Counted from the stretch's first letter, positions 1,203 to 54,307 are shown. The stretch: 64,000 nucleotides of DNA from an uncultured virus (IMG/VR IMGVR_UViG_3300033072_000717) (IMGVR_UViG_3300033072_000717), one strand, 5' to 3'. Notes: generated by a model not told the origin, from the letters alone. A program made the numbers and translations.

Positions 1203-2471
1203 ATGACCACAGAAAATGAAAACACTCAGGTCGCCGTTGCGCGGCCGCAGTCCGTCAAGGACTTTCTCGCCGTCCCTGCCTACAAGGAGCGGTTCCACGA
1301 GGTGCTTCAGAAGCGGGCGCCGCAATTCATGGCGGCGATTGTGCAGACGGCCGCGCAGCCGCACCTGAAGGATGCGGAACCCCGGTCGATCATCGCCGGG
1401 GCGATGGTGGCGGCGACCCTCGACCTCCCGATCAATCAGACGCTGGGCATGGCTCACCTCGTACCTTACCGGGATTCGTCCGGCCAGCTCGTCGCACAAT
1501 TCCAGTGCGGGTACAAAGGGTTCATCCAGCTGGCCCTGCGATCTGGACAGTATCGCCGGCTGAATGCCGGGTCGGTTTCGGAGGGGGTCTTTCAGGGGTA
1601 CGACAAGGTGGGCGAGCCCATCATGGACTTTTCCCGGAACGACCCCGTTGCCCCGGCGGCGGGGTACTACTGCGCGTTCGAAACCGTGAACGGCTTCACC
1701 AAGATCGTTTACTGGACCAAGGCGCAGGTCGAGGCCCACGCCCGCAGGTTTTCCAAGGCGTTCTCTAAGGGGTTCAAGTCGAGCCCGTGGTTCTCGGACT
1801 TTGACTCCATGGCCACGAAGACCGTGATCAAGTCCGCCCTGACCAAGTGGGGCATCATGTCTGTCGAAATGCAGCAGGTTGCCGTGCACGACCAGGGCGT
1901 GCAGCTGGATGTGGACGCCGAGGTCAGGCACGTTGACGCGGAGCCGCTGGTGCCCCAGGGGGAAGGGGAGACGACGCCGCCCAAGCGTCCGCCCCCGCCG
2001 CCACGCAAACCCAAGGGCGTCGAGGCCATGAAGGTGGCCACGCCGGTCGCGGAGCCGGAGACCGTGAAGGAGCCGGAGCAGGAGCCCGAGGCGGAGCCGG
2101 AATCTGCACCGGAGCCGGAATCACAGCCCGCGCCGCAGCCGGAGCCCGCCAAGAAGAAGGCTGCCGTCGTGCAGCGCACCACACTGAATGACGGCGAAGT
2201 CATCACCGTGGAGGCGATGGTGGACTCGTTCAAGAAGGCTTCTGGCAGTCGGGGTGGCAAGCCTCACCCCTACATCTCCGCCTCCGTGGTCAGCCCGCAG
2301 TTCCGGGGCGATGTCAACCAGCCTGACGGCGGGCTTGACCAAGACGGCAGCCCGGTGAAGGAATGGCAGCTCGACAACCCCGTGCTGTTGACTTTGCGGG
2401 GCAAGAAATACCCCAATCACCCCGGCGTGGTCGTGCTCGTGGACAAGATCGAGGAGTCCGTGGCTTACTGA
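1203..2471 (+). CDS. recT: RecT-family single-strand annealing recombinase with Pro/Glu-rich linker and C-terminal domain
   Basis: AATLDLPINQTLGMAHLVPY, AQFQCGYKGFIQLALRSGQY and W.SDFDSMATKTVIK motifs. Confidence 0.9.
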   Translation: MTTENENTQVAVARPQSVKDFLAVPAYKERFHEVLQKRAPQFMAAIVQTAAQPHLKDAEPRSIIAGAMVAATLDLPINQTLGMAHLVPYRDSSGQLVAQFQCGYKGFIQLALRSGQYRRLNAGSVSEGVFQGYDKVGEPIMDFSRNDPVAPAAGYYCAFETVNGFTKIVYWTKAQVEAHARRFSKAFSKGFKSSPWFSDFDSMATKTVIKSALTKWGIMSVEMQQVAVHDQGVQLDVDAEVRHVDAEPLVPQGEGETTPPKRPPPPPRKPKGVEAMKVATPVAEPETVKEPEQEPEAEPESAPEPESQPAPQPEPAKKKAAVVQRTTLNDGEVITVEAMVDSFKKASGSRGGKPHPYISASVVSPQFRGDVNQPDGGLDQDGSPVKEWQLDNPVLLTLRGKKYPNHPGVVVLVDKIEESVAY

Positions 2472-2480
2472 GGCACTGGC

Positions 2481-2678
2481 ATGACTGATCACTCGGCCAT
2501 CGAATACGGCGGGCTTTCGTACGATGCGGAAACCCGCAAAATGCTGATCCTGTGCCTTTACCAAGCCGGCATTTCGGTCAAGGTGATAGCCGCCCACCTG
2601 CAATGCACCTGCGCTTGGGTGTCGCTGGTGGCGAACCGAGCCGGCCTGCGGAGGCGAAAGAGGAGGGGGACGGCGTGA
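2481..2678 (+). CDS. small HTH-like protein
   Basis: GISVKVIAAHLQCTCAWVSLV resembles an HTH; basic C-terminus. Confidence 0.5.
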   Translation: MTDHSAIEYGGLSYDAETRKMLILCLYQAGISVKVIAAHLQCTCAWVSLVANRAGLRRRKRRGTA

Positions 2679-2693
2679 GATGAGAACGAGTCT

Positions 2694-3011
2694 CAATAAC
2701 TTGACCGACAGCCTAATCATGAACACATGGTTAGCACTTTGCCGCTATGACTATTGACCAACTACTAGACGCACAATCGCCAGACGTGCGCGCAGAAATC
2801 GAAGCGATCACGCGCGAGGCCGGAACGTGGGATGCCGACTGGCAGGTGCTGCTTGCTGCTGGAACACGGAGCGCCGACTTGCGCACTACGCTCCGCGAAT
2901 ACCTCGCACTTTCGTCACTCGACGGACGGCCCGAGAGGCAACAACTCCGCGCGAAGCTCAAGACCTTGTGCTAACAATAACTTGACCGACAGCCTAATCA
3001 TGAACACATGG
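2694..3011 (+). repeat. 37-bp exact direct repeat (2694-2730 and 2975-3011) flanking a cassette-like ORF
   Basis: CAATAACTTGACCGACAGCCTAATCATGAACACATGG occurs twice. Confidence 0.95.
2747..2974 (+). CDS. hypothetical protein, cassette-like
   Basis: Bounded by GTTAGCAC (2730-2737) and its reverse complement GTGCTAAC (2968-2975), which contains the TAA stop. Confidence 0.65.
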   Translation: MTIDQLLDAQSPDVRAEIEAITREAGTWDADWQVLLAAGTRSADLRTTLREYLALSSLDGRPERQQLRAKLKTLC

Positions 3012-3215
3012 CACAAAACAGAGGAGCGATTCCCGCCGACTGGCGAGGTGGTGGAGATCACGCACCCGCAGCTCCGGGGGACCCGCATGGCGAAGATGGA
3101 TTCGCTCAGGCACTCCGGCTGGATGCTGACCGACTGCACGCACCCGGCACAAAACTGCTACGTTCCAACCGCCGAAAGGGCGTGGCGCGACATGGCGGCC
3201 ACGAAGTCACGGTGA
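3000..3215 (+). CDS. hypothetical protein (DUF551-like N-terminus)
   Basis: MNTWHKTEERFPPTGEVVEI; start lies in the second repeat copy. Confidence 0.5.
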   Translation: MNTWHKTEERFPPTGEVVEITHPQLRGTRMAKMDSLRHSGWMLTDCTHPAQNCYVPTAERAWRDMAATKSR

Positions 3216-3222
3216 TTTCTCT

Positions 3223-3355
3223 GCCGAACAAATAGCTGACCGATGAGCACGACGACAGCCACTCAAAACTCGCTCCTAGCAAGAGCTTTGGCCGGCACCT
3301 ACAATGTGCCCTTACGGAACGCTAGTGCTCATTCGCGTCTGGCGTCTGGTTCGCC
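3223..3355 (-). other. attC-like recombination site
   Basis: Minus strand: GGCGAAC-CAGAC-GCCAGACG..ATGAGCAC [loop] GTGCTCAT..GGTCAGC-TATTT-GTTCGGC. Confidence 0.7.
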
Positions 3356-4049
3356 GTCTGTGGCTGCTCTCTTCGTCCAGGAGGGCGGTGCATACTACGG
3401 CCTGCCGCATGTCGATCCGTGGCCGGAATCGCGGGACGCGCGCACTTACGCCGGCCCGTGGCCGGTCGTGGCACACCCGCCGTGCCAGAGGTGGGGCAAG
3501 ATGTGGTTCGGCCAGCCGCTCACCGTGAAACGGACGGGCGTGCGAAAGATCAAGGGCGACGACGGCGGCTGCTTCGAGGCCGCGCTCGCCGCCGTGCGCA
3601 AGTGGGGCGGCGTGCTGGAGCACCCGTGGGGGTCGCATGCGTGGCCGCACTACGGGCTTGCGAAGCCGCCCCGCGCCGGTGGCTGGATACGGGCGGACCG
3701 GGAAGGGGGGATGACATGCTGTGTTGAGCAGGGCCAATACGGGCACTATGCGCGGAAGCCGACAATGCTCTACGCCTGCGGCGTGGCCTGTCCGGAACTG
3801 CGCTGGGGACACACCGAGGCCCGCCTCGACCCCGCGGTGGTGGCGCGAATGGGGCTCAAGCGAGCCAAGCGCCTGGGCGAAGTGGGCGCCCGCGGCGGGG
3901 GCACCGACAGCACCGCCAGGATTCACACACCGGCCGAATTTCGCGACTTGCTACTGAGCATCGCGCTTTCGGCGAACGTGGAAGTGAGCGACCGCCGCGC
4001 TCACGCTCCCGAAAACACAACAGGCGCGAACGGCGGTTCGCTCCACTGA
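3243..4049 (+). CDS. C5 DNA-methyltransferase-like phage protein (cassette)
   Basis: DARTYAGPWPVVAHPPCQRWG (PPC catalytic-type motif) and GGVLEHP; starts in one attC and ends in the next. Confidence 0.55.
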   Translation: MSTTTATQNSLLARALAGTYNVPLRNASAHSRLASGSPSVAALFVQEGGAYYGLPHVDPWPESRDARTYAGPWPVVAHPPCQRWGKMWFGQPLTVKRTGVRKIKGDDGGCFEAALAAVRKWGGVLEHPWGSHAWPHYGLAKPPRAGGWIRADREGGMTCCVEQGQYGHYARKPTMLYACGVACPELRWGHTEARLDPAVVARMGLKRAKRLGEVGARGGGTDSTARIHTPAEFRDLLLSIALSANVEVSDRRAHAPENTTGANGGSLH

Positions 4050-4059
4050 CTGGTTAGCC
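3971..4059 (-). other. attC-like recombination site
   Basis: Minus strand: GGCTAAC-CAGTC-AGTGGAGC-GAACCGCCG [loop] CGGCGGTC-GCTCACT-TCCAC-GTTCGCC; 8-nt L'' versus 7-nt L' with extrahelical bases. Confidence 0.85.
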
Positions 4060-4066
4060 GAAAATT

Positions 4067-4297
4067 ATGCCCGAAGGACTATCAGAAGCATGGGAACATA
4101 GTAACCGTGAGGACCGCGAAAAACGCGAAGCCTACGCGCCAATCTCCGACGCCTACACGGGCGACGGCTGCAACAACCCCGCCTGTGGCCGATGCCGCGT
4201 TATCGAATACCGTAACGGTAAAAAGGTCTGCGAGAAATGCCACTGGGATCAAGATGCGAAGCAATATGACGGAACGCACAGCGAGCTTTTCGGCTAA
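4067..4297 (+). CDS. small Cys-rich (Zn-ribbon-like) cassette protein
   Basis: CNNPACGRC...CEKCHW; cassette ends GTTAGCCGAAAA (4053) and TTTTCGGCTAAC (4287) are exact 12-bp reverse complements. Confidence 0.7.
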   Translation: MPEGLSEAWEHSNREDREKREAYAPISDAYTGDGCNNPACGRCRVIEYRNGKKVCEKCHWDQDAKQYDGTHSELFG

Positions 4298-4484
4298 CGA
4301 CCGAGATGTGCCGACGAGCGGCACGAACGGAGAACCATACCATGAACCAACCGAAAACAAAACCCATGTTTGAACGTCACCGCGAACTCGAAGACCCGAC
4401 AGACGGGCCTGACGTGTTGAGCGCAATCGAGGCAGCCGAACAGCCGGCACATTGCCGCTCGTTGGCACTGGCTCGTGGTTGTCT
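4292..4484 (-). other. attC-like recombination site with long loop containing the next gene's start
   Basis: Minus strand: AGACAAC-CACGA-GCCAGTGC-CAACGAGCGGCA [loop] TGCCGCTCGTCG-GCACATC-TCGGTC-GTTAGCC. Confidence 0.8.
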
Positions 4485-4598
4485 TCCGGTGCCGAGCGCC
4501 GCAGCTCTTCTGCTCGCGGCAGCATGGGAGAGAGAAGGCGCATACCACGAAAAGGAAAGCGACTGCGACATGTATAGGGATTTATATACGAAGTTACC

Positions 4599-4895
4599 CT
4601 AAGCCTTCCGACCGGCACGGAACCCAAGTTGCCACGCGCACACCGCGCAGCGATGCCGGCCCGGCGGTTTCTGCGACTCCTCAAGCCCGTCAATCACCTC
4701 GGCGGGAGCACGGGAACCCTCGGAGCAGGATTCAACGGGTCCAGCGGGAAGCGCGGAGTGTTCACGGCCCCACGTATAACCCGCCTCGTAGGCACAGACG
4801 ACGCACTTGTGGCGTCCCAAACCGCCCTGATTCTCGTGGAGTTCGGCCGTAGCCATGACCCCCGGCATTGCATGGTTTCGTTCACAGACCGTCAT
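4599..4895 (-). CDS. IS passenger: small protein with duplicated Q..GRHxCxVCA(Y/W)..G motif
   Basis: NQGGLGRHKCVVCAYEAG and SQKPPGRHRCAVCAWQLG; stop codon lies in the left TIR. Confidence 0.6.
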   Translation of the reverse strand: MTVCERNHAMPGVMATAELHENQGGLGRHKCVVCAYEAGYTWGREHSALPAGPVESCSEGSRAPAEVIDGLEESQKPPGRHRCAVCAWQLGFRAGRKA

Positions 4896-4999
4896 GGGCC
4901 CTAAATGCCGCTCCCAGAGGGAGAAAACAAGCCGAGAACGATTCTTTCAATTCAGCACTTGACTACCCTAATCTGATCCTGTTTTGTCTGATTCAGCAG

Positions 5000-5944
5000 A
5001 TGAGCACCACCTTTCAGTTCAAGAACCTCGCGGAGTTCCTCGGTCACTTCAAAGACGAGGAGACATGCAAGCGGCACTTCGAGGCCATCCGCTTCCGCGA
5101 CGGCGCGTATTGCGCGCACTGTGGCCACAAGACCGTCTACAAGTTCAGCGGCGGCAAACGCTACCGCTGCGGCAAGTGCCGGCAGGACTTCACCATCAAG
5201 ACGAACACCGTGTTCGGCGAGAGCAAGCTGCCGCTCAAGAAGTGGTTCATCGCGATCTATCTGCTGACCACGAGCAGCAAGGGCATCTCGTCGGTTCAAT
5301 TGGCCAAGCACGTCGGCGTGACCCAGAAAACGGCGTGGTTCATGGACCACCGCATCCGCTCCGCCCTCAAGCAGAACAAGGGGCAACTGTTCGGCACCGT
5401 CGAGGTTGATGAGACCTACATCGGCGGCCGCGAGAAGAACAAGCACGCCTCGAAACGGCTGAAGAAAACCAAGGGCCGCAGTCTTGTCGGCAAGACGCCC
5501 ATCATCGGGCTCATGCAGCGGGACGGCGAGGTGCGGGCAACCGTGGCGGACGAGATCAACGCCCGGACCATCGGCCAGCAGGTGGTGGAGCACGTCAAGA
5601 TCGGGTCCAACCTGTTCACGGATGACTTCGGGGCCTACTACCACGTCGGCAAGTTCTTCTTCCATGCCATCACGCGGCACGGCCAAGGCGAATACGCACG
5701 CGATAGCGAGCACGGCCGGGTTCACTCGAACTCCATTGAGAGCTTCTGGGCGCTCTTCAAGCGCGGCTACCACGGAATCTACCACCAGATGAGCCGCAAG
5801 CACCTCCAAGCCTACGTCAACGAGTTCGCCTACCGGTTCAACCAGCGCGCCGAGGACCTTCAGACTGTCTTTTCCGATGTAGTCGAAAAAGTGTCGCTTA
5901 GCTCCAAGCTGCCCTACAAGAAACTGACCCACCAAGCCGCATGA
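5000..5944 (+). CDS. tnp: IS1595-family DDE transposase
   Basis: N-terminal Zn ribbon (CAHC..RYRCGKCR), HTH (GISSVQLAKHVGVTQKTAWFM), VEVDETYIGG, FTDD, HSNSIESFWALFKR, YVNEFAYRFN. Confidence 0.95.
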   Translation: MSTTFQFKNLAEFLGHFKDEETCKRHFEAIRFRDGAYCAHCGHKTVYKFSGGKRYRCGKCRQDFTIKTNTVFGESKLPLKKWFIAIYLLTTSSKGISSVQLAKHVGVTQKTAWFMDHRIRSALKQNKGQLFGTVEVDETYIGGREKNKHASKRLKKTKGRSLVGKTPIIGLMQRDGEVRATVADEINARTIGQQVVEHVKIGSNLFTDDFGAYYHVGKFFFHAITRHGQGEYARDSEHGRVHSNSIESFWALFKRGYHGIYHQMSRKHLQAYVNEFAYRFNQRAEDLQTVFSDVVEKVSLSSKLPYKKLTHQAA

Positions 5945-6846
5945 GCCGCCCCTCTAAAATGCACGCGCCGATTCAGGCGAACTTCGGGGACGTGCTGGCC
6001 GCAATCGCGGACGAGCAGAAGCCGGAAGTTGAGAGCATCGGGACGAGGCCGTTCCTGAAGTGGGTCGGCGGCAAGCGGTCGATCCTCTCGTTACTGGCGG
6101 ACCGGATGCCGGAGCGATACGGCACCTATCACGAGGGGTTCGTCGGTGGCGGCGCGCTTTTCTTCCACCTGCAACCAACCAAGGCGGCGCTCTACGACAT
6201 CAACTTTGCGCTCGTGCTCACCTATCAGGCGGTGCGCGACGACCTAGACCGGCTCATCTCGTTGCTTCAGGTTCACCAGCGGTCGCACAGCAAGGACTAC
6301 TTCAAGAAGGCGCGGGACAAGCTCTCCACCGAGTCCGACGCCACGCGGATTGCGGCGTGGTTCATCTACCTCAACAAGACGTGCTTCAACGGCCTGTTCC
6401 GGGTCAACAAGGCGGGCAAGTTCAACGTGCCGATGGGGAGCTACACCAACCCGGTCATCTTCGAGGAGGACGTGCTCCGCAACGACTCCAAGATGCTACG
6501 GGGTGTCACCATCACTCAGCAGCCGTTCTCGCAACTGCCCATCGTTCGGGAGGACTTCTACTATCTGGACCCGCCGTATCATAAGACCTACGACGGCTAC
6601 AACGGCAGCGGCTTTGGGGACGAGGAGCACACGAAGCTCGCGGAGCTATGCACGGAGATTCACGAGGCGGGCGGCTACTTTATGCTGTCCAATTCGGACA
6701 CGCCCTTTATCCGTGGGCTCTACTCCAAGTTCCACATTGAGGTAATTTCCGCGTCCCGCTCCGTCTCCTGCAAGGCCGACCAGCGGGGCAAAGAGAATGA
6801 GCTCGTCATCCGAAACTACACCACGCCAGCCAAACAGCGGGTCTAA
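5941..6846 (+). CDS. Dam/DpnM-family (D12 class) N6-adenine DNA methyltransferase
   Basis: RPFLKWVGGK, EGFVGGGALF, YLNKTCFNGLFRVN..G.FNVP.G, YLDPPY, FMLSNSD. Confidence 0.92.
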   Translation: MSRPSKMHAPIQANFGDVLAAIADEQKPEVESIGTRPFLKWVGGKRSILSLLADRMPERYGTYHEGFVGGGALFFHLQPTKAALYDINFALVLTYQAVRDDLDRLISLLQVHQRSHSKDYFKKARDKLSTESDATRIAAWFIYLNKTCFNGLFRVNKAGKFNVPMGSYTNPVIFEEDVLRNDSKMLRGVTITQQPFSQLPIVREDFYYLDPPYHKTYDGYNGSGFGDEEHTKLAELCTEIHEAGGYFMLSNSDTPFIRGLYSKFHIEVISASRSVSCKADQRGKENELVIRNYTTPAKQRV

Positions 6847-7303
6847 GGCCAACCAGACCGGCAGCGCACTGGAACGGGTAGTTGCTCAATCACTCATCAG
6901 TCGGGGATACGCGGAGTTCTGGAACCACAAGGCGCAGGTGTTTGAGAACCGGCACGCCATCGGCGGCAAGCAGTTCCTGAAGCAGCTACCGGTGGGTTTG
7001 ACCATCTACGATACGGTGCGGAAGTGCGACTTCCTGGTTATCAATCGGTCGCTGTTCCCCAAGGATCTCATCATTGAGTGCAAGTGGCAGCAGTCGGCGG
7101 GCTCCGTAGACGAGAAATACCCCTTTCTGCTGTTCAACATCATCAAGACCGGCATTCCCACGGTGGTCTTGATTGATGGGAAGGGCTACAAGCCGGCCGC
7201 GCTCAAGTGGCTCAAGGAGCAGGTCACAAAGAAGGGCTCACTTGTGGGGGTCTGGGACATGGCCGAGTTCCAGAAACAGGTGAACAACGGCTTTCTTGGT
7301 TAG
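6797..7303 (+). CDS. PD-(D/E)XK nuclease, putative restriction endonuclease partner
   Basis: KCDFLV...IIECKWQQSAGSVDEKYPF; overlaps the MTase 3' end; stop lies in the right TIR. Confidence 0.75.
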   Translation: MSSSSETTPRQPNSGSKANQTGSALERVVAQSLISRGYAEFWNHKAQVFENRHAIGGKQFLKQLPVGLTIYDTVRKCDFLVINRSLFPKDLIIECKWQQSAGSVDEKYPFLLFNIIKTGIPTVVLIDGKGYKPAALKWLKEQVTKKGSLVGVWDMAEFQKQVNNGFLG

Positions 7304-7442
7304 GGTAACTTCGTATATAAATCCCCATGTATAAGGGCGAATACGCCACCGGCCACGATCATGCCGGCCGTGCTGCCGCCTACCGCAGATGTGCGGAGGA
7401 CCTGCGCCGGCAGGTGGGGCACATGAATAAGCGTCAGCCGGA

Positions 7443-7492
7443 AGACAACAGTGAATATCAAACCGGCGGTTCGCATATCAAACCACGCTAAC
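7443..7492 (-). other. conserved array-head (attI-like) site, copy 1
   Basis: Minus strand GTTAGCGTGGTTTGATATGCGAACCGCCGGTTTGATATTCACT-GTTGTCT; near-identical copies at 53371 and 54892. Confidence 0.7.
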
Positions 7493-7508
7493 TATTCGCC
7501 CCCTCCCC

Positions 7509-7772
7509 ATGACCTCCCAACTTGAAGGACTGGAAAACTGCCCGCTCCACCGCCGCACCCCCTACGGCATAAAGAACGTATCAGAGACCCAATTCAGCGT
7601 TGCCAGATACTCGATGGGCTGCACCTACAACGGGGACCACTACATCTACATCCCTCCCACGGACGAGTTGATCCGGGCGGACGTGTGGAAGTGGAAGGCT
7701 GGGCAGATGATGAAGGCCAAAAACCGTCAAATGACGGCTTCACAACAACAACAACAACTACCCCTCCAATGA
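7509..7772 (+). CDS. hypothetical protein
   Basis: ORF following the array in the same orientation. Confidence 0.55.
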   Translation: MTSQLEGLENCPLHRRTPYGIKNVSETQFSVARYSMGCTYNGDHYIYIPPTDELIRADVWKWKAGQMMKAKNRQMTASQQQQQLPLQ

Positions 7773-8119
7773 CACGCTGGACCGACATGACACACAGAAA
7801 GACATATGCCCAAATGTGGGGGTGCGGCTGCGACTGTTGCTGCTACCAGCCGAGAATTGTCGAGCGCAGCCCATTGGAATACCGAGACCCAGGGTGGCTC
7901 CCGCCCGTGCTCCTTGAAGAAGGGCCGTGGAGGAGCGAGCCAACACGCGAGGAGTGGCGGGAGCAATGTGAGTGGCTTGTTGAAGCGGCACGCCGGCACA
8001 ACGTCGAAAACCTCGCTGAAATCGAGGAGCTTCATGCGGGCGTCGCTGGGCACTTGAGGCCCGCACAACTCCCGCTTCCGTCGCCTTTACCCGACACAAA
8101 CCCCGGTAACGACCGATAA
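7769..8119 (+). CDS. hypothetical protein
   Basis: ATGA overlap with the upstream ORF. Confidence 0.45.
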   Translation: MTRWTDMTHRKTYAQMWGCGCDCCCYQPRIVERSPLEYRDPGWLPPVLLEEGPWRSEPTREEWREQCEWLVEAARRHNVENLAEIEELHAGVAGHLRPAQLPLPSPLPDTNPGNDR

Positions 8120-8320
8120 AGCGGACGTTAAAGGGCGAACCCTAAACGACCCCCATCCCATGAAGATCGCCCTCATCGCCCTATGCGCCACCATGGTTGA
8201 GTTCCTTGGCTGGTGCGAGCGCCGCAATCGCGGCAAGGGGTCTTGGTATTCCGACCGGGTTCTGATCCGCCTCCAGGGCGCCTTCCTGTGCGCGGCGCTC
8301 TACGTCCTCTTGTCCTAGCC

Positions 8321-9874
8321 TCACACGCGACGGATGAACATGGTCCCGAGGGTGGAGTGCTTGACGCGCTGAACCTCGCCGGTCTCGACCCATTTTGAGA
8401 CCACATCACGGAAGGCCCGCTCGGTGATCCCGCAGGGAAGCTCCCGGACCGAGCGATAGAACTGGGCGAAGGTGGCCGGCTTCTCGTCCGAGAGGCAGCC
8501 AAGCATCTGCGGGAGGTCATACCGCACCGGCCTGCCTCCCACCCCGGGTCGCTTTTGGACGATGACGGACAGGTGCATCTGCGCCTCGTCATCCCACTTG
8601 AACGTGACGGCATCGGACTCGGGGATGGGTTTGCCGCGCTGCTTGGTGGCCCACAGGTGGGTGGTGCCCTCCTTGACCTTCATGGTCAGGTTGGACTGCG
8701 CCTTGCGTTCGAGTTGCGAGCCAAGGTGCCCGCGGCCCTTCTCGTTTTCGCTGCCGGGGTTCTGGTGCAGGACGGTGATGACAGGGGCGGACACGCCATC
8801 GGCGCCGGACAGGGCGTGCAGTTCGGTGATAAGCGGGAAGCACTCGCCGGAGTCATTCGGGTCCACCACCAGGTCGGCCACGCCGTCGATGAACACCGAG
8901 TGTGTCCCGCCGTGCTGCCGGTGGTGCTTGCGGGTCAGCGCAAAGGCGAGTTTGCGGCACTCCGAGGCGCTTTTCCCCGTGAAGTGGTAGGAGTGGAACC
9001 ATGCCGGCGGGGCGTCCATCTTGGCCCGCTCCAGTGCCGTGCGGATCATCTGCTCATAGTCATACCGGCTCTGCTCGGTGTCAAAGTGGACGACGGAGAG
9101 CCCGTCCGGGTTTTCGGACTGGACGCCAAGGCAGTCGGTCTCGCTGCCCTTTTCCCGGAACACGGCGGCGAGCATGGCGCCCAGGAATGCGGTCTTGCCG
9201 GTCTTGGCCTGCGAGTAGAGCGCCACGAGGTTTCCGGGGGTGGCTATGATCGTGTCCCGCAGCCGGAACCGGGCCGGCGGCTCGGGCTCGACCCGGGAGT
9301 GGTCATACGCGCAGTCCGCCGCGTCGGAGGGAATCAGGTCGGAGGCGCGCTGGATTTCCGCGTTGGCCGCCGCCAGCAGTTCCTGCGGGTCACCCGCGTG
9401 CGTCAGGGCGGTCTCGGCCAGCTTGCGCCCGGACATGGCCAGCTCGCGCAGGACATGCTTTTCGCGCAGCACCCCGATGAAATATGCCGCCTGCGCCGTG
9501 GTCGGCGTGGCCTGCGTGATTTGCATCAGGTAGGCGATGCCGCCGACCTCCGCCAGCTTGGCCGCGCCCATCAGCTCCTCGGCCACGGTCTCGACCGAGA
9601 GCGGCAGGTGCCGGCGGGAAAGCGACTCCATCGTTTCCCACACCAGCGCATTCGCCGGCCAGTAGAATGAGCGCGCCGACACGCCGGCCTCGGTGGCGCG
9701 GCTGAACGTCGGGTGCCCCTCCGTGGAGAGGGAGTCCAGCAGGCAGCAGCCTATGACCTGGCGCTCGGCCTCCTCCGAGGCCGGCAGTTGGTCCGCCAAG
9801 GGCTTGGATGCTGATCGCCGGGGCCTGCGCGGTGCATCCGCAGGTGCCGGCTCCGGCGCGAAGTCGTCATCCAT
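8321..9874 (-). CDS. replicative helicase-like protein: DnaB N-terminal domain fused to RecA/AAA_25-type ATPase
   Basis: ASEEAERQVIGCCLLD..EVGGIAYLMQI (DnaB_N); Walker A SQAKTGKT, HFDTEQS, IDGVADL, RGHLGSQLERKAQS. Confidence 0.8.
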   Translation of the reverse strand: MDDDFAPEPAPADAPRRPRRSASKPLADQLPASEEAERQVIGCCLLDSLSTEGHPTFSRATEAGVSARSFYWPANALVWETMESLSRRHLPLSVETVAEELMGAAKLAEVGGIAYLMQITQATPTTAQAAYFIGVLREKHVLRELAMSGRKLAETALTHAGDPQELLAAANAEIQRASDLIPSDAADCAYDHSRVEPEPPARFRLRDTIIATPGNLVALYSQAKTGKTAFLGAMLAAVFREKGSETDCLGVQSENPDGLSVVHFDTEQSRYDYEQMIRTALERAKMDAPPAWFHSYHFTGKSASECRKLAFALTRKHHRQHGGTHSVFIDGVADLVVDPNDSGECFPLITELHALSGADGVSAPVITVLHQNPGSENEKGRGHLGSQLERKAQSNLTMKVKEGTTHLWATKQRGKPIPESDAVTFKWDDEAQMHLSVIVQKRPGVGGRPVRYDLPQMLGCLSDEKPATFAQFYRSVRELPCGITERAFRDVVSKWVETGEVQRVKHSTLGTMFIRRV

Positions 9875-9909
9875 GCTGGGGGCTCCGGTGGAGTGCGTGG
9901 TGGCGCCGG

Positions 9910-10521
9910 TCAGTCATTGGCACGCGTGTCCTCTCTCCTCCCCTCCAACTCCAGTTGCGCAATCGCCAGAGCCCGCCACGCCACCTTGACGGAGTGCGGA
10001 ACCCCGTCGGAGTCCACCTTGCCGCGCTCAAGGAAATGCCGGATGAGGGCGTCGGCGTGATCGCTGCTCTTGCCCCGGCTCCAGTGCAGCGGCTGTCCGG
10101 GATTGTGCTGCTCGTTGCCCTTGCGCGAGCACACGGCCAACGCGAGGATCGCGTCCGGGAAGTAATCAAGCACGCCGGTCGCCGCAGGAATGGCCTTCCT
10201 TGCCTTGGCGTCCTCGGGCTTGGTCATGTAATCAGGAAAGCCGACAACGGAGGCGGTGCGGATTTCCTTGGCGAAAACCGCCTGCTGCTGGACCGACTTC
10301 CAGCCGGAGGTATCGCAGTCGCCCTGCTTGGGCACCGGCATCTTCCGGTAAACGCGCGTGCCGGAGTCGATGTTTTCCACCGGGGTGCCGATGTCTTCGG
10401 GCTGGGCGAACCAGCCCTCGTGGAACGAGTAGAGCGGGCCGATGAGCCAATCGCCCTCTTGGACGACGCCGCAGGTGACGTTCTGCCATCCGGCAGGTGA
10501 GGTTGGGGTTGTCATTTCCAT
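9910..10521 (-). CDS. DUF5664-like dATP/dGTP diphosphohydrolase domain protein
   Basis: GVLDYFPDAILALA..GNEQHNPGQPLHW..DHADALIRH..D.DGVPH..KVAWRALA. Confidence 0.7.
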   Translation of the reverse strand: MEMTTPTSPAGWQNVTCGVVQEGDWLIGPLYSFHEGWFAQPEDIGTPVENIDSGTRVYRKMPVPKQGDCDTSGWKSVQQQAVFAKEIRTASVVGFPDYMTKPEDAKARKAIPAATGVLDYFPDAILALAVCSRKGNEQHNPGQPLHWSRGKSSDHADALIRHFLERGKVDSDGVPHSVKVAWRALAIAQLELEGRREDTRAND

Positions 10522-10754
10522 GTAGAGTTAAGGTATTCCGTCAAAAGTGCGACCTCGGCGTTTGCGGCCTCCTGGGTGTCGCTGACCCAGTTAAGCGCGG
10601 GCGGGATGCCCCCGCGGAACAGTCGGGGACCGGCTGGCGTGGTCATGCCGTAGCTGCTGGCAAACAGGCGCCACTGGCCCGTCTCCATGTCTAGCAGGGC
10701 GGAGACGGTCGGGATGGCGGCACCCCGCGAATGGCTGGCGGCCTTCTTCACCAC
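10512..10754 (-). CDS. hypothetical protein
   Basis: Overlap-coupled in the leftward operon. Confidence 0.5.
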   Translation of the reverse strand: MVKKAASHSRGAAIPTVSALLDMETGQWRLFASSYGMTTPAGPRLFRGGIPPALNWVSDTQEAANAEVALLTEYLNSTWK

Positions 10755-11104
10755 GGCAGAAAATCATCTTCCTCGAATGCGATCTCGGGCTGCCGAGCCG
10801 GCGCGACATCCGCGATCACCGGCCGCTTCGTCCACGCCGCCACCTGCCGCATCTCGCCGTGCCAGTGGTCGAGGCCGTGTGCCGAGGCATAGGCCAGTGT
10901 CGCCTCCAATTCAGAGCTGCCGCGCGCACTTCTGGTCATTGAGCGGTCGTGGCAGACGAACTCGGCGCCGGGCCATCCGCCGATCGAGTGGGGCCGCGAA
11001 TAGGTTGTGAGCCTGAGTCCGTTGCGGTGATACCACTCCATGCGCGGAGAGGGCGTCTCCGCCACTTCCACGAGCAATCCCCCGTCCTGATTGTCGGTGT
11101 TCAT
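10748..11104 (-). CDS. hypothetical protein
   Basis: First gene of the leftward operon; acidic C-terminus EEDDFLPW. Confidence 0.5.
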   Translation of the reverse strand: MNTDNQDGGLLVEVAETPSPRMEWYHRNGLRLTTYSRPHSIGGWPGAEFVCHDRSMTRSARGSSELEATLAYASAHGLDHWHGEMRQVAAWTKRPVIADVAPARQPEIAFEEDDFLPW

Positions 11105-11344
11105 TTTCCCGCACCACACCTTTCCTGCCGCTTGTTTTCCCGGGATTTCTTGGTGAGGATCGTCTGTATGTTGAACGGCTCCCGGGGTTGAAACCAGATT
11201 TCCCCGCGCCGGATGGCATTCTGGACTAACTGCTTCAAGTCCGTGGTCGCAATCGAGTTCATGGCGCAGGTGATGCACCAGCCTTGGAAGGGTTCAAGTC
11301 AAAAATGCCGCTTGACGGACTTGCCGAGCGAAAATACACAGGCG

Positions 11345-11620
11345 ATGATGAAGAAAAGAAAGGAACACAAGTTGCACGGGTCGGCACTGGCAAAGCGGCA
11401 TTTAGCGCAACTCGCCGTGCACCTGAAGGGGTTTCGCCGCGCCTCGGGCAAGACCCAGCGCGACCTGGCGGAGATGGTCGGCTGCTCGGCCCAGCAGGTG
11501 CGCAACGTCGAATTGGAGGCGAACTATCCGTCCCTGCCGGTCTATCTCGCCATGGCCGAGGTGACGGGGTGGGGTCGCTGGCTTCCTCGCGGAAAATGCG
11601 ACGGCTCCTCCGGCCCCTGA
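11345..11620 (+). CDS. XRE/Cro-family HTH regulator
   Basis: RRASGKTQRDLAEMVGCSAQQVRNVE...PSL; preceded by a TTGACG promoter-like site. Confidence 0.8.
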   Translation: MMKKRKEHKLHGSALAKRHLAQLAVHLKGFRRASGKTQRDLAEMVGCSAQQVRNVELEANYPSLPVYLAMAEVTGWGRWLPRGKCDGSSGP

Positions 11621-11661
11621 CTTGGCGGCACATTCACCCAAACCCCCAACCCAACCACTGA

Positions 11662-12015
11662 ATGAACTGGAACAAAGTCCAACTCGCCGGGCGGCTTACT
11701 CGCGACCCGGAACTCCGCAACACGCCCGCCGGCACTGAAGTCGCCTCCTTCACCATCGCGACCAATCGCGTATGGAAGGACAAGGACGGGACCAAGCGCG
11801 AGGAGGTAGCTTTCATTGACTGCGAAGCGTGGGGGATCACGGCCTCCACGATCTCCAAGCATTGCGCCAAGGGCCACGAGCTTCTGGTCGCCGGGCGGCT
11901 TAAGCAGGACACATGGGAGGACAAGACCACCAAGCAGCAGCGGTCGCGGCTCAAGGTGGTGGTCGAGGAGTTCCAGTTCGGGGCCAAGCGCGACGCGGCC
12001 CCGGCCCAGCAATAG
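11662..12015 (+). CDS. ssb: single-stranded DNA-binding protein
   Basis: NKVQLAGRLTRDPELRNTPAG..FTIATNR..FIDCEAWG..GRLKQDTWEDK. Confidence 0.95.
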   Translation: MNWNKVQLAGRLTRDPELRNTPAGTEVASFTIATNRVWKDKDGTKREEVAFIDCEAWGITASTISKHCAKGHELLVAGRLKQDTWEDKTTKQQRSRLKVVVEEFQFGAKRDAAPAQQ

Positions 12016-12056
12016 GCCGAGGGCTTCCCGGGGGAGGACGGCCCGGCTTTCTGACG

Positions 12057-12248
12057 ATGCCCTTCAACACGCAGGTGTTCCTGCTGATCCTCGCGTGCGG
12101 GGCCTTCTACTCGCTCGCGATGCTTTCCATCCACGCCGCCCGGCTGGCCTCGGCCCCGGGCAAGATACTGGTGCGCACGGTATCCGCGTGGGCATCCCTC
12201 CTCATCGCGTTCTCCTGCTTCACTTGTTTGGTCTTGATGCTGGCATGA
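12057..12248 (+). CDS. small membrane protein
   Basis: Two hydrophobic segments. Confidence 0.4.
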   Translation: MPFNTQVFLLILACGAFYSLAMLSIHAARLASAPGKILVRTVSAWASLLIAFSCFTCLVLMLA

Positions 12249-12437
12249 AACGGGCAACGCTTCGCTTCGTTCGGCAGGCATGGTGTGCGGGGAGAGCCCG
12301 CAACGGGTTTGCGTTTTTAACCTCATGAAACACCTGGCCGAACCCCTTTCCCCTCCCGCTCCCAGGCGCAGGTCGCCGTTCTTTGTTGCGCTACGGGTCA
12401 AGAAACCACCCGGAACCAAGGCGGGAGGGGCTTATTT

Positions 12438-13007
12438 TCAGGCCGGGAAAGTGGTCCACGCCCTGCCCCACCTGTAGCGATGCAGTGGGGAGTCAATTCG
12501 CGTGGCGGTTCGAACCAGCGGGAGCGCCTGTCGCAAGAAGAACGCATCCTCCGCTGCATCGAAGTGTTCCGGGAAGCGGCAGTCTGAGAACACGCTTTTC
12601 TTCCAGCAGCACCAAGACCAAGGCGTTCGGGTGATGTCCGAATAGCGACCGGGACCGAGGCACTTGGGCTGTTCATTTGCCGCCCCCACGACGGTTCGGA
12701 CCCGGAACGGCTCGCTGTCATCCAAGCTGGCCATGGAATCGTAATGCACGAGGTCGCAGCCGAGCCGCAGGGCAGGCAACACCGCCTCGGCAAATCCCGG
12801 GAGCAGCAGGTCGTCGTCGTCCACATGGCAGAAATACTCGCCTGCGGCCATGGCGGCCAGCGTGTTCCTCTTGGCCCCGAGCGGGCGAGTGCGGTTGTCC
12901 ATGAGGACCAGCAACTCGATCTCCGGGTGGTTCGGGATGGAGGCCAGGAGTTCCCCGAGCCGGGCGTGGCGTTCGGGCAGCGAGGGGACGCAGATGGTGA
13001 GCAGCAT
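12438..13007 (-). CDS. GT2-family glycosyltransferase
   Basis: LTICVPSLPER..GAKRN..AGEYFCHVDDDDLL..AEDAFF; paralog of 22752-23396. Confidence 0.8.
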   Translation of the reverse strand: MLLTICVPSLPERHARLGELLASIPNHPEIELLVLMDNRTRPLGAKRNTLAAMAAGEYFCHVDDDDLLLPGFAEAVLPALRLGCDLVHYDSMASLDDSEPFRVRTVVGAANEQPKCLGPGRYSDITRTPWSWCCWKKSVFSDCRFPEHFDAAEDAFFLRQALPLVRTATRIDSPLHRYRWGRAWTTFPA

Positions 13008-13067
13008 GTCCGTTAGGCGGACGAAAATCCCTTGACGTGTCAACAGGACTTGTTAGCCGTCGTGGCC

Positions 13068-13385
13068 ATGAAGAACCCCGTTACGCTGGCTGACCGAATC
13101 AATGCTGATGTCCAGTATCGCGGCATCAACGCGAGGAAGGAACACATGTTCGCCAACGGGGGACTGCTGGTGTCCCATGTGTTCGCCACGCTGGAGGAGG
13201 GCGTGGCCCGGTTCGGCAAGCGCATCAAGGTGGACCAGCGGGTGCTCACGCACTCCACGGTGTTCACCAAGGGCGTCGAGGACGGCGGGGCCGGTCGCTA
13301 TGCCCCGCGCAAGGAGGCGGACCGGCAGGAGCATTTCGAGTATGGTTCGGGGTATCTGGTCGGGCTGCTCGGGAGCGACAAGTGA
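13068..13385 (+). CDS. hypothetical protein
   Basis: Follows a CCCTTGACG promoter-like site; coupled to the next gene. Confidence 0.55.
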   Translation: MKNPVTLADRINADVQYRGINARKEHMFANGGLLVSHVFATLEEGVARFGKRIKVDQRVLTHSTVFTKGVEDGGAGRYAPRKEADRQEHFEYGSGYLVGLLGSDK

Positions 13386-14536
13386 ACCCGAAGCCAGAAC
13401 TCCGTTGCAGCCAGCTGGACCGCTCGATTTCGTGTCCGGGCTCGATGCTGCTGTGCGCAAAGGTCAATCCGCCGCCTGATGGCGAGGAGGCGTCTGACGG
13501 CACGGCGCTGCACTGGCTTGGCCACGCGAGAATCCAGAAGGAGCTTGGGGCTTCCGGCGACATCGGCGCGTCACCCGCCATCCCGGATGCCCTGAAGTTC
13601 TCGGCATGGATCGTGGATTTCTACGTCAGGACGATCAGCGCCCTCACCCCGCCGGACTGGAGCCTTGAACTGGAGGTCCCGCTGGAGGAGGACTACGGGG
13701 ACTTCACCCTGTCCGGGCACATCGACTGCGTGGCTGTTTCGCCGGACGCGACCCGCGCCATTGTCTATGACCTGAAGACGGGTTATATCCCGGTGGATGC
13801 CGCGGCGAGCAACTGGCAGCTGTTTGGCTACGCCTGCCTCCTCGCGAGCGCCTATCCCGATCTCCGCGAGGTCACGCTCTACATCATCCAGCCAAGGAAT
13901 GACGAGGATGCCGGATTCCACCGCGTCAGCGAGCCCTGCACGATTTCCGGGGAGAAGCTGGCCCAAGCCGTCGAGCACCTGAAGTCCGAAATCAGGCTCG
14001 CGCTGTCACGCCGGATGGAACTCAACACCGGGATCAAGCAATGCCGCTGGTGCGCGGCCAAGCTCCAGTGCCCGGCCCAAATCGCCGAAAGGGAACTTAT
14101 GAAGAAGACCATGACCAAGGATGAACTCGAAGCCATCAAGCCGGAGGCCGACCCCAGGGCGCTGGTGGATTGGTGCGAGACCCTGAAGATTCTGGCCCCG
14201 ACCATGGAGCAGGCGGAGGAGATGCTGCGCGAGTATGTGGCCAAGCATGGCCACGCCGACGGAACCAATGTTCGCGTCACCGCCACCACCCGCCTCGGGG
14301 GGTATGACATACCTGACCCGCTGGCGTTCTACGAAAAGCTGGAGCGGATGCTGCCGGAGAAGGAGCGGCTGGCCCAGGTGCTCAAGCCGACGATGAAGGC
14401 CATCCGGGAGCAGCTGGCCGACTCACGGGGAATCCCCGTGTCCTCCAAGAAGGGCGAAAGCGGCACGTCCCTGTTTGACGAGCACCTGCGTCCGCTGACC
14501 GTGCAGAAGCACAACCAGGTGCTTCATTATTTGTGA
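13382..14536 (+). CDS. DUF2800/Cas4-like PD-(D/E)XK exonuclease
   Basis: SCPGS, GTALH, SGHIDCV, VYDLKTG, NWQL.GYA, IIQPR, QCRWCAAKLQCP. Confidence 0.8.
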   Translation: MNPKPELRCSQLDRSISCPGSMLLCAKVNPPPDGEEASDGTALHWLGHARIQKELGASGDIGASPAIPDALKFSAWIVDFYVRTISALTPPDWSLELEVPLEEDYGDFTLSGHIDCVAVSPDATRAIVYDLKTGYIPVDAAASNWQLFGYACLLASAYPDLREVTLYIIQPRNDEDAGFHRVSEPCTISGEKLAQAVEHLKSEIRLALSRRMELNTGIKQCRWCAAKLQCPAQIAERELMKKTMTKDELEAIKPEADPRALVDWCETLKILAPTMEQAEEMLREYVAKHGHADGTNVRVTATTRLGGYDIPDPLAFYEKLERMLPEKERLAQVLKPTMKAIREQLADSRGIPVSSKKGESGTSLFDEHLRPLTVQKHNQVLHYL

Positions 14537-14818: not shown

Positions 14819-15351
14819 CCATGAACGATTCCAAACTCAACTCTGAGAAAATGCGCGAGGAGAACAATCATCTGCGCTCCCTCCTACAGCAGATGCTCGA
14901 CGTAGCCGAGGACTGTGACCCCACCGGCTACGCCGATGAGGTTGGCTTTGTGGACCTCGACAAACTGCACGCCGAAGTTCGCCGCGCCATTGAGGCGAAC
15001 CCGCAACCAACCCCCGCCCCAGGCCGCGCCTTGTGGAAAAACGGAACGCCTGACGTGAAGGAAGGCGGTCGTGAAATCTTCTGGTGCGCGACCCGCACCA
15101 GCGCAGGGAAGATTTGGCATCGACACCTCGCATATTTCAACGCGTGCATCATGTCGCTCTCGGACTCGTGCGACGAGCCGCCGGAAGGTGCGGTTCCCGT
15201 GGGCGACGACGGGGACTACGCATTGACCGGCTGGTATCAGGAGTCGTGCGATTACTGTGAGACTCAGTGGAGCTTCGACGGCGAGGTTCTGGCGTGGATG
15301 CGCCTGCCGCGCTGCGACGTGAACACCAAGGTGACACATGGCGGGCGCTAG
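14815..15351 (+). CDS. hypothetical protein ending inside an attC-like site
   Basis: DUF551-like end VLAWMRLP, then VNTKVTHGGR* encoded by the attC arm. Confidence 0.6.
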   Translation: MTMNDSKLNSEKMREENNHLRSLLQQMLDVAEDCDPTGYADEVGFVDLDKLHAEVRRAIEANPQPTPAPGRALWKNGTPDVKEGGREIFWCATRTSAGKIWHRHLAYFNACIMSLSDSCDEPPEGAVPVGDDGDYALTGWYQESCDYCETQWSFDGEVLAWMRLPRCDVNTKVTHGGR

Positions 15352-15381
15352 CCCGACATTGTGTCTGGCGATTTGTTAGCC
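15318..15381 (-). other. attC-like recombination site
   Basis: Minus strand: GGCTAAC-AAATC-GCCAGACA-CAATGTCGGGC [loop] GCCCGCCATG-TGTCACC-TTGGT-GTTCACG. Confidence 0.8.
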
Positions 15382-15393
15382 CTTTCTTTCGTT

Positions 15394-15777
15394 ATGGAAA
15401 AACAACCCGCATACTTCTTCAACATCGCGGACGCCAAAGACCCGGACGACCCGCAGGGGCGCACCTACCGCGAGGTGAACAACGCCAAGGCGCACGGCAT
15501 TCCTCTCGGCGCGCTCGTCGAAATCGCACACGACCCAGAATACCCGTCGCCGATGGACGGTGCGCGCCTCTTTGTGGTGATGCACGGTCGAGACTGCGAT
15601 GGAACGCCGCTCTACGAGCTGTGCGCTGACCCGGAGGACAACGTGCAGGAAAACCCGCGATTCCGAAACGCAAAGTGGCACGGCGGCTACAGCGAGGGCT
15701 CACTGAGAGTCATTCGCCTGCCGGGGGCTAACACCCAACTGACCGGCCCGAGGGGGTCCGGTCGAGTGACTGGTTAG
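15394..15777 (+). CDS. hypothetical cassette protein
   Basis: Cassette ends GTTAGCCC (15375) and GGGCTAAC (15725) are reverse complements. Confidence 0.7.
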   Translation: MEKQPAYFFNIADAKDPDDPQGRTYREVNNAKAHGIPLGALVEIAHDPEYPSPMDGARLFVVMHGRDCDGTPLYELCADPEDNVQENPRFRNAKWHGGYSEGSLRVIRLPGANTQLTGPRGSGRVTG

Positions 15778-15779
15778 GC
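15726..15779 (-). other. attC-like recombination site (54 bp)
   Basis: Minus strand: GCCTAAC-CAGTC-ACTCGACC-GGACCC [loop] GGGCC-GGTCAGT-TGGGT-GTTAGCC. Confidence 0.85.
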
Positions 15780-15802
15780 CCCTGAAAATAATTCACGAAC
15801 AC

Positions 15803-53334: not shown

Positions 53335-53370
53335 CGGGGTTGATTCTTGCTAAAGGGGTGGAGGGGAGGC

Positions 53371-53420
53371 GTTAGCGGGGGTTGATATGCGAACCGCCGG
53401 TTTGATATTCAGTGTTAGGC
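53371..53420 (+). other. conserved array-head (attI-like) site, copy 2
   Basis: GTTAGCGGGGGTTGATATGCGAACCGCCGGTTTGATATTCAGT-GTTAGGC (perfect GTTRRRY core). Confidence 0.7.
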
Positions 53421-54262: not shown

Positions 54263-54307
54263 AAGGCAGACCATTTTCCCGGCGTCAGGAAATTGGTTCT
54301 CCTTTGC

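Follow-up and report, generated by a model that had tools for sequence, protein, structure and literature searches.

Integrons are known as bacterial gene-capture platforms, and clusters of their attC sites have recently been reported from a few phage genomes. Clusters of attC sites lacking integron-integrases (CALINs) are defined as two or more close attC sites with no integron integrase nearby, with the distance threshold taken from IntegronFinder. Here, we analyze a 64,000-nucleotide stretch of DNA from an uncultured virus (IMG/VR IMGVR_UViG_3300033072_000717), referred to in its full length as the window, which contains a row of small genes between attC-type hairpins at 2.7-7.5 kb. We conclude that this locus is quite probably an integrase-less integron-type cassette array (CALIN) in the early region of a phage, with its genes on the attC sites' bottom strand and with a host integrase that may act on it in trans.

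In the account of Nivina et al. (2016; PMC5027507), the bottom strand of an attC site starts at its 5' end with RYYYAAC (R'), which a spacer of 5-6 nt separates from L'; a variable loop then leads to L'', and a second spacer to GTTRRRY (R'') at the 3' end. Two bases of the L'' arm are extrahelical, a G at position 16 and a T at position 23/24, and a 6-bp stem lies between them; the sites are given a length range of 57-141 bp. Qi et al. (2023; PMC9892861), the one study of attC sites in phages that our literature searches retrieved, screened, as stated in their main text, 10,705 phage genomes and obtained 3 integrons, 1 In0 and 17 CALINs. The phage cassettes are described there as 'oriented in the same direction' as typical arrays, and the words antisense, opposite and Verrucomicrobia are absent from that text, which leaves aside the supplements, where the strand of the open reading frames (ORFs) may be stated.

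Like the phage CALINs portrayed in that main text, the present locus comprises small genes between attC-type sites, lacks an integrase, carries methyltransferase-type cargo and is presumed to depend on a bacterial integrase in trans. Its own features are genes on the attC bottom strand, start codons in hairpins, three separate groups of sites in operons of both directions and a conserved element that abuts the last AAC box. With sedentary chromosomal arrays (contig C161 of genome G006 and loci L180, L189 and L190), it shares the attC family, exact end pairing and the extrahelical positions 16 and 23, whereas those arrays have the integrase gene intI or a remnant of it nearby and ORFs on the top strand, and the phage has no intI and ORFs on the bottom strand. 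As in class 1 mobile cassettes, to the extent that these are covered in PMC5027507, there are R', R'', L' and L'' boxes, an unpaired spacer, extrahelical bases, AAC/GTT triplets and stop codons in the AAC box. Unlike such cassettes, the window shows no attI, Pc or intI platform, reversed gene polarity, end pairing of up to 12 bp and one proposed site of 193 nt. While phage attC cassette arrays have already been published, we did not find a reversed gene layout of such arrays described in the literature, nor a consistently reversed polarity in print, and we regard the locus as a genuine integron-type array.

Results

attC-type sites in the window

An earlier note on this DNA, made from the sequence alone, had proposed that three attC-like hairpins delimit three plus-strand genes. 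In our analysis, these hairpins have the following features:

3223-3355, plus strand (bottom-type strand): attC-like site 1, 133 nt, inside the attC length range, contains ATG 3243
3969-4059, plus strand (bottom strand): predicted attC site 2, 89-91 nt, inside the 57-141 bp range
4292-4484, plus strand: hairpin 3, 193 nt, with a 16-nt stem (4308-4323/4453-4468) that has one G.T mismatch and a 129-nt loop holding ATG 4342

We searched both strands of the window, with filters off, using a covariance model of our own build (R1). The 8 attC sites in this model all come from bacterial arrays: five belong to L180, a contig of a Sulfuricella metagenome-assembled genome (MAG), two to L190 and one to L189; no site of the window was used. 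The search returned three matches, and nothing else in the window at E<1:

3969-4059, plus strand: R1 match, 34.8 bits, E 3.2e-7
15724-15779, plus strand: R1 match, 30.0 bits, E 6.8e-6
53926-53813, minus strand: R1 match, 13.6 bits, E 0.2 for the whole window and 0.018 over 5.6 kb

In 180 other loci (2.28 Mb), the model produced 5 matches at E<=0.01, all within L011 and L178. When the 23 sites with R1 E<=0.05 were aligned, in an alignment fitted to R1 itself, 87.4% of the cells were paired and 17 of 23 pairs had changed on both sides; the covariation score was 0.395, compared with 0.140 upon shuffling (reached in 0 of 500 cases) and at most 0.072 with slid partners.

Site 2 opens with the R' box GGCGAAC, which a spacer separates from an L box; an extra T (position 23) and an extra C (position 16) follow, with a 6-bp stem between them, and the spacer TGACTG leads to the R'' box GTTAGCC. 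Its R1 alignment places the T, 6 bp, the C, 3 bp, a 5-nt spacer and GTTAGCC in the expected slots, with C where G is expected, and this anatomy agrees with that of the bottom strand as presented in PMC5027507. The site is homologous to the attC sites of L180 and L189 and, as judged from its sequence, is strongly validated as an attC site.

Hairpin 1 is moderately supported as an attC site. Its constrained fold has extra bases on the 3' arm at positions 20 (C) and 24 (T), and its ends recur once each, mirrored, on the minus strand (GCCGAACAAATA at 53913-53924 and CTGGCGYCKGGTTCG at 53815-53829), with 0 and 0.01 chance matches expected from shuffles. These mirrored copies coincide with the third R1 match, at 53926-53813 on the minus strand. 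For hairpin 3, whose ends do not recur beyond chance elsewhere in the window, an assignment as attC is not supported. The proposal of three attC-like hairpins stands, in sum, for hairpin 2 by its R1 match and anatomy and, moderately, for hairpin 1, and is not borne out for hairpin 3, which has neither a bulge nor an R1 match. The extrahelical bases are present at site 2 in the R1 alignment (C16, T23), partly at site 1 in the constrained fold (C20, T24) and not at site 3, where there is a G.T mismatch only.

Two additional sites lie in a plus-strand operon in the region 15314-15782:

15318-15381, plus strand: further attC-type site, T at position 23
15724-15779, plus strand: further attC-type site, G at position 16 and T at position 23

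The sequence at 15722-15782 folds into the same attC shape, with the G and T bulged (z -4.13), and the two sites bracket the box pair GTTAGCCC (15375) and GGGCTAAC (15732). Between the two sites starts an ORF (ATG 15395) that continues across the second of them and terminates in the GTTAGGC box there. An Rfam scan of the window identified no family.

Relationship to chromosomal integrons

The best match of site 2 in the 3.4-Mb Verrucomicrobia MAG G006 is located at positions 23-45 of contig C161 (91% over 23 nt, 21/23) and corresponds to the arm made up of L'', spacer and R''. It has the strand orientation expected of an attC site and lies 0.6 kb upstream of an open frame with an integron integrase (TIGR02249, 376.7 bits with a cut-off of 265); upstream of this integrase gene, there is a minus-strand cassette ORF and then the attC arm at the contig start. 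The C161 arm and site 2 have CGGTTCGCTCCACTG in common, then TGGTT after two swapped bases, and the 5' arm GTGAGCGA is common to the phage attC and the chromosomal attC family, a second full copy of which is found on G006 contig C143. G006 also holds L166, whose gene flanks, over the ~135 nt compared, show no difference from the flanks in the related phage locus L096, and a Sulfuricella genome (G007) has three integron integrases above the cut-off. Sequence similarity places site 2 in the attC family used by chromosomal integrons.

Tyrosine recombinases of family PF00589 are absent from the viral contig G001, which covers window positions 13694-64000 and 1-1500, and no ORF in the remaining segment (1501-13693) matches this profile; it is also absent from the records of L096, L091 (complete), L093 (96%) and L099 and from the complete L011 record. 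The array stands without the combination of intI and attI beside it that makes a complete integron. With respect to the CALIN definition, an integrase is absent, and the 2.7-7.5 kb interval contains a single significant R1 site, the others resting on structure and box chains.

Paired ends and chains of cassettes

All sequences quoted in the earlier note are present, and three exact inverted-repeat pairs of 8, 12 and 12 bp can be read directly from the window:

3349-3356 and 3970-3977, plus strand: pair 1, GTTCGCCG / CGGCGAAC, 8 bp
4053-4064 and 4287-4298, plus strand: pair 2, GTTAGCCGAAAA / TTTTCGGCTAAC, 12 bp
4478-4489 and 7438-7449, plus strand: pair 3, GTTGTCTTCCGG / CCGGAAGACAAC, 12 bp, spanning an insertion sequence (IS)

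These pairs follow the rule for cassette ends, whereby the initial bases of a cassette are complementary to the R box at the opposite end. The hairpins delimit plus-strand genes as had been described: every proposed hairpin opens with an ...AAC box and closes with a GTT... box, with plus-strand ORFs in between. The AAC and GTT triplets are present in all three (GCCGAAC...GTTCGCC, GGCGAAC...GTTAGCC and GGCTAAC...GTTGTCT), and the purine/pyrimidine consensus RYYYAAC/GTTRRRY is followed in part. The resulting units are as follows:

2694-3011, plus strand: first cassette-like unit, with a perfect 37-nt direct repeat at 2694-2730 and 2975-3011
3000-3215, plus strand: small ORF, 71 amino acids (aa), then an AAC box, CTGCCGAAC, at 3221-3229
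3349-3977, plus strand: cargo module with the phrog_12600 gene, ends formed by pair 1, conserved core 3360-3977
4053-4298, plus strand: cargo module, ends formed by pair 2, ORF 4067-4297 (76 aa, Cys-rich) with its TAA stop inside the AAC box
4478-7449, plus strand: cargo module, ends formed by pair 3, ORF 4342-7491 interrupted by the IS

Between the repeat copies of the first unit lie the pair GTTAGCAC (2730-2737) / GTGCTAAC (2968-2975) and ORF 2747-2974 (75 aa), whose TAA stop is inside the AAC box. The end of the left repeat copy is the G of GTT and the start of the right copy is the C of AAC; a small hairpin is found within 2690-2740 (z -3.35). For ORF 3000-3215, there is no GTT box upstream that matches CTGCCGAAC. 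The 76-aa protein encoded by ORF 4067-4297 has no relatives in viral contigs. ORFs stop inside or shortly before the next R'' box, and start codons are situated inside hairpin 1 (ATG 3243), hairpin 3 (ATG 4342) and the site at 53926-53813 on the minus strand. The AAC triplet is read as an Asn codon within an ORF in 4 of the 5 cases examined (3975-3977, 7447-7449, 15730-15732 and, on the minus strand, 55253-55251); in the fifth (4296-4298), it overlaps a TAA stop.

After removal of the IS, the window contains 31 perfect GTT.../...AAC pairs of at least 8 bp, which form three head-to-tail chains of three:

3349-7449, plus strand: chain of three, 8, 12 and 12 bp
54935-56266, leftward operon: chain of three, 8, 9 and 10 bp
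In structural genes: chain of three, 8-mers only

Triplets with a comparable pair count form zero or one chain of three each, and by our own rough estimate about 0.3 such chains would be expected by chance from the 31 pairs. As a positive control, exact end pairing produced a chain of 6 in the bacterial array L180 and a chain of 4 in L178.

A trivial explanation would be that short inverted repeats and GC-rich hairpins of a sequence with 63% G+C were picked after the fact. In line with this view, the z-scores of the DNA folds are weak (plus/minus strand: -0.45/-1.33 for hairpin 1, -1.03/-1.64 for hairpin 2 and -2.77/-1.18 for hairpin 3), and the window harbors 187 perfect inverted repeats of at least 10 bp at a spacing of 100-1500 bp, so that single repeats are not above chance. 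Moreover, GTT is not enriched at the outer ends of inverted repeats, neither in the window nor in 2.1 Mb of loci, and a naive scan for AAC...GTT with a forced R box gives 1634 candidates per strand, many of them with long stems, and is uninformative. However, such a process does not account for R1 E-values of 3e-7 and 7e-6, set against 5 matches in 2.28 Mb of control loci, for the fact that both hairpin 1 ends recur in mirrored form, or for the covariation among relatives and the exact boundaries of homology described below. Chance is refuted for site 2 and the box pairs and possible for hairpin 3 alone; as an explanation of the locus, it is scarcely credible.

Exchange of the phrog_12600 module

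The first of the three paired modules carries a gene whose relatives allow its ends to be compared between loci:

3243/3360-4049, plus strand: cargo gene, phrog_12600, core 3360-3977

With 7992 of 8000 candidates at E<=0.001 and the best 120 being 66-87% identical, phrog_12600 is a very large, highly conserved family, characterized by the invariant motifs HPPCQRWG and LEHP. The DNA likeness of the cargo gene to 80 viral loci is restricted to positions 3343-3978. The AAC box marks the end of the conserved core, beyond which the C-terminal tails vary with the hairpin that follows. In 5 of 78 phrog_12600 loci, the window included, the ends form a perfect inverted repeat of 8-11 bp, whose GTT half closely precedes the gene and whose AAC half lies where the core ends. 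These five loci show four different sequences (GTTCGCCG, ttGTTCACCG, tGTTAGCCCGC and GTTGGCCGT, the last one twice), and mismatched upstream/downstream controls reached at least 9 bp in 5 of 464 cases; two further instances of paired ends, L178 and L180, have GTTAGATGCC(T). The modules of L096 and L099 align over 626 nt at 85.6% identity; the alignment opens 2 nt ahead of the GTT box and closes on the final base of the AAC box, and the 600-nt flanks on both sides are unrelated. Similarly, L178 and L180 are 88.9% identical, and their homology, too, stops at the final base of the AAC box. L096 has a chain of three of its own, with hairpins between its modules (z -3.6, -1.9 and -6.7).

Modules of this kind could also reflect ordinary phage mosaicism, that is, homologous or illegitimate exchange at short conserved intergenic sequences, with the AAC/GTT boxes being incidental. 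In T4-type phages, promoter-stem-loop cassettes are exchanged at such sequences. The perfect 37-nt direct repeat that flanks ORF 2747-2974, the three copies of a 46-62-nt element at the ends of gene blocks, and the unrelated flanks of phrog_12600 in most of the 78 loci would all fit this scenario. Direct-repeat models, however, predict neither inverted, covarying ends nor an anatomy with extrahelical bases nor homology to an attC site beside an integron integrase, and we consider this explanation highly improbable.

The cargo gene had previously been called C5-methyltransferase-like. ORF 3243-4049 has no Pfam, NCBIfam or meaningful PDB sequence match, including PF00145, so that membership in this family is not borne out and the designation survives as a fold-level lead. 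The AlphaFold model of the protein is of low confidence, with a predicted local distance difference test (pLDDT) score of 61.7. Nearly all of its Foldseek matches are cytosine-5 DNA methyltransferases (E 0.03-0.3), as are all of the top 50 entries after realignment of the top chains (Z up to 7.1 for M.HhaI, over 163 residues with a root-mean-square deviation of 4.7). Together with the PPCQ motif, this model weakly suggests a cytosine-5-methyltransferase-like fold.

Gene polarity relative to attC

The earlier note had inferred an antisense rule, with attC polarity flipping with the direction of transcription. In plus-strand operons, the rule is borne out: both significant R1 matches in the window are on the gene strand (plus), as are 3 of 3 matches in the complete 58.7-kb phage record of L011 and 4 of 4 in L178. 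In L178, the GTT box of the phrog_12600 module forms the end of the last site. The L011 record has terminal repeats and no tyrosine recombinase; at 6350-8300, it shows recT followed by three attC sites (40.4, 26.1 and 31.8 bits) at the gene junctions of a tight plus-strand operon. In the two orientation controls, L189 and L192, the cassette ORF is opposite to the attC bottom strand, and intI is on the same strand as the bottom strand. In L189, the plus strand carries an intI pseudogene (2136-2916) and is the bottom-type strand of the attC sites, while the cassette ORF located between these sites is on minus; the intI of L192 is above the curated cut-off. Since the phage sites lie on the coding strand and those of both controls lie opposite to it, the reversed layout is systematic rather than one chance inversion.

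A segment with the phage-type layout is also found within a chromosomal attC array. In L180 (576-1554), two plus-strand ORFs, one of them a phrog_12600 member, lie on the attC bottom strand; their box pair (897-1554) is the first of the chain of 6, and the neighboring cassette is an ordinary minus-strand one.

The predicted flip with transcription direction was examined in the second operon:

53300-58100, minus strand: leftward operon of small ORFs, with exact pairs at 54935-55180, 55251-55637 and 55744-56266

Here, the 13.6-bit match at 53926-53813 on the minus strand, a mirrored homolog of hairpin 1, and a single T that is bulged on the minus strand (position 23; 55631-55750) speak in favor of a mirrored polarity, which is weakly supported. 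Many N-terminal leaders in this operon, presumably the other array implied by the earlier note, contain GGTTCGG (Gly-Ser).

Insertion sequence and repeated element

The ends of the last cassette had been described as pairing across a 2.7-kb IS, and this is confirmed: the IS extends from 4577 to 7326 (2750 bp), with terminal repeats and a target duplication that can be read from the sequence.

4577-7326, plus strand: IS1595-family element, 26-bp terminal inverted repeats at 4577-4602 and 7301-7326
4569-4576 and 7327-7334: 8-bp target duplication, CATGTATA
4599-4895, minus strand: small ORF, phrog_3941
5000-5944: transposase, PF12762 (DDE_Tnp_IS1595) E 7.2e-40; NF033547, 192.5 bits (cut-off 75)
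5941-6846: Dam-type N6-adenine methyltransferase, TIGR00571, 254 bits
6797-7303: PD-(D/E)XK nuclease, PF20472

In ISfinder, the IS1595 family is characterized by a DDE_Tnp_IS1595 transposase that has a zinc ribbon at its N-terminus, by terminal inverted repeats and by a duplication of 8 bp of the target. The transposase, the terminal inverted repeats and the 8-bp duplication of the present element assign it to this family. Like IS1595 elements with passenger genes, it combines a zinc-ribbon DDE_Tnp_IS1595 transposase with such repeats and duplication; its own traits are the Dam-type methyltransferase, the PD-(D/E)XK nuclease and its location in a phage cassette gene. By its gene content, it is a transposable restriction-modification-like module inside a phage. 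A search for copies in G006 gave a distant transposase match only (70% over 122 nt).

At the AAC of the last box of the array begins a repeated element:

7447-7508 (plus strand), 53416-53355 (minus strand) and 54937-54892 (minus strand): repeated element of 46-62 nt with two ATATCAAACC repeats

Its copies are 85-89% alike; each of them begins precisely with the AAC of the box that precedes it and ends shortly before a gene start (7509, 53334 and 54865). Searches of viral and metagenome contigs found no copies. The element could be a promoter, an operator or an attI-like docking site. A likeness to the attI region of L189 amounted to a patchy match around TAT(C/A)AAACCGGCGG only and is not relied on.

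Genome setting

The window is phage-like DNA with a G+C content of 57-67% in 2-kb steps. Its positions 13694-64000, followed by ~2.3 kb and then positions 1-1500, correspond at 100% identity to the 54.1-kb linear viral contig G001. This order of segments indicates that the phage genome is circularly permuted and ~66 kb in length. G001 is without window positions 1501-13693, the part that contains the cassette array. The early genes around the array include a helix-turn-helix regulator and a single-stranded DNA-binding protein as well as the following:

1203-2471: RecT, early-region gene directly upstream of the array, followed by the row of small plus-strand ORFs
8321-9874, minus strand: DnaB-like helicase

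The closest relatives of RecT are only 53-64% identical. The phage host is probably a member of the Verrucomicrobia.

Three other regions of the window are of note. Positions 1-290 contain ~15 or more tandem copies of a 12-nt unit, open in several frames, with variant contigs in the sequencing runs. At 59019-59479, dense direct and inverted copies of AGTTACTTCCGAG and AATTGTAAAA motifs resemble an iteron or operator region, possibly an origin. Finally, a minus-strand ORF at 60112-60612 has a match to the central part of the bacterial solute-binding protein family 5 profile (PF00496, E 1.9e-23), which is odd for a phage genome.

Discussion

Our analysis points to an integrase-less, integron-type cassette array in the early region of this phage, an interpretation that we consider quite probable. 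Under this model, every small gene would sit between attC-type sites, and a single R box would be divided between its two ends, with the GTT... half upstream and the ...AAC half downstream. Since the R-box halves pair in the circular cassette, the ends are expected to be exact inverted repeats and to covary among relatives. The coding strand would have the anatomy of the recombinogenic bottom strand, making the genes antisense to textbook cassettes, and the hairpin would precede its gene, in several cases holding the start codon, with upstream ORFs running into the next hairpin. A host integron integrase may act in trans on single-stranded phage DNA, cutting the bottom (coding) strand at AA|C, such that a cassette would consist of a hairpin and the gene downstream of it. 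Cassettes might be swapped in this manner with other phages and with chromosomal integrons, and phage early transcription would express only those with their gene on the bottom strand. At a later stage, the IS1595-family element with its methyltransferase and nuclease would have inserted into the gene of the last cassette.

Several observations weigh against this interpretation. R1 finds one of the three proposed sites in the interval, with hairpins 1 and 3 scoring under 7 bits, and the clustering that defines a CALIN rests there partly on weaker structural evidence. Hairpin 3 exceeds the attC range of 57-141 bp and shows no bulged base, hairpins 1 and 2 do not have better fold energies than shuffled sequences, and 68 of 3268 (2.1%) arbitrary AAC...GTT candidates have a bulge at position 23 or 24. 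The 37-nt direct repeat that encloses the first unit is more suggestive of homologous recombination, and the leftward-operon junction at 55646-55750 has a 9.1-bit R1 match on the opposite (plus) strand. In the pairs L096/L099 and L178/L180, the module is shared without either flanking hairpin; because integrase-only excision would keep one attC with the gene, this finding needs extra assumptions, namely fast attC divergence or homogenization of attC sites within arrays. Finally, no joint that skips a cassette or the IS was found in contigs from two sequencing runs, which cover the region identically; these runs come from one study and possibly from the source sample, and contigs drop rare variants, so that an absence of other alleles is not implied.

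The lack of an alternative allele in the contigs of this phage is also what one would expect of a fossil array, whose sites stem from attC sites captured once with their genes, no longer recombine and now serve as terminators, processing sites or start-masking hairpins in early mRNA. Such a state would agree with a phage devoid of integrase, with the degenerate nature of hairpins 1 and 3 by R1, with start codons that fall within two of the stems (hairpin 1 and the site at 53926-53813), and with ORFs that read through sites. It is, by contrast, difficult to reconcile with the presence of the same cargo module in different arrays, its box pair intact and covarying, with the full attC anatomy kept at two sites of the window, and with the integron integrases encoded in likely host lineages. 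In addition, IntI1 recombined 5 of 6 attC sites from virulent phages, as stated in the main text of Qi et al. (2023; PMC9892861). We regard a fossil array as distinctly unlikely and a cassette array accessible to host integrases as the preferred interpretation.

Going beyond this interpretation, it is tempting to speculate that some phages run a version of the integron of their own, although we view this idea as rather doubtful. Early accessory cassettes would be kept on the recombinogenic strand, with attC masking the start of each gene, and arrays would be laid out so that transcription, and perhaps replication, reads the bottom strand. The 46-62-nt element would then be the promoter-distal equivalent of attI, and host integrases would shuttle the reversed cassettes to chromosomal integrons, where they would be silent.

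In practical terms, the attC family may provide a clue to the host of an uncultured phage, and the boxes would mark the exact exchange points in a mosaic region of the phage genome. The analysis also marks small unknown genes, among them a very widespread methyltransferase-like family, as mobile accessory functions. Several unrelated uncultured phages appear to carry early accessory genes as reversed-strand cassettes, with a family of sites that is also that of an integron in a candidate host lineage. Collectively, these findings point to a regular two-way gene traffic between phages and chromosomal integrons and to a rule of layout that current integron models do not predict.

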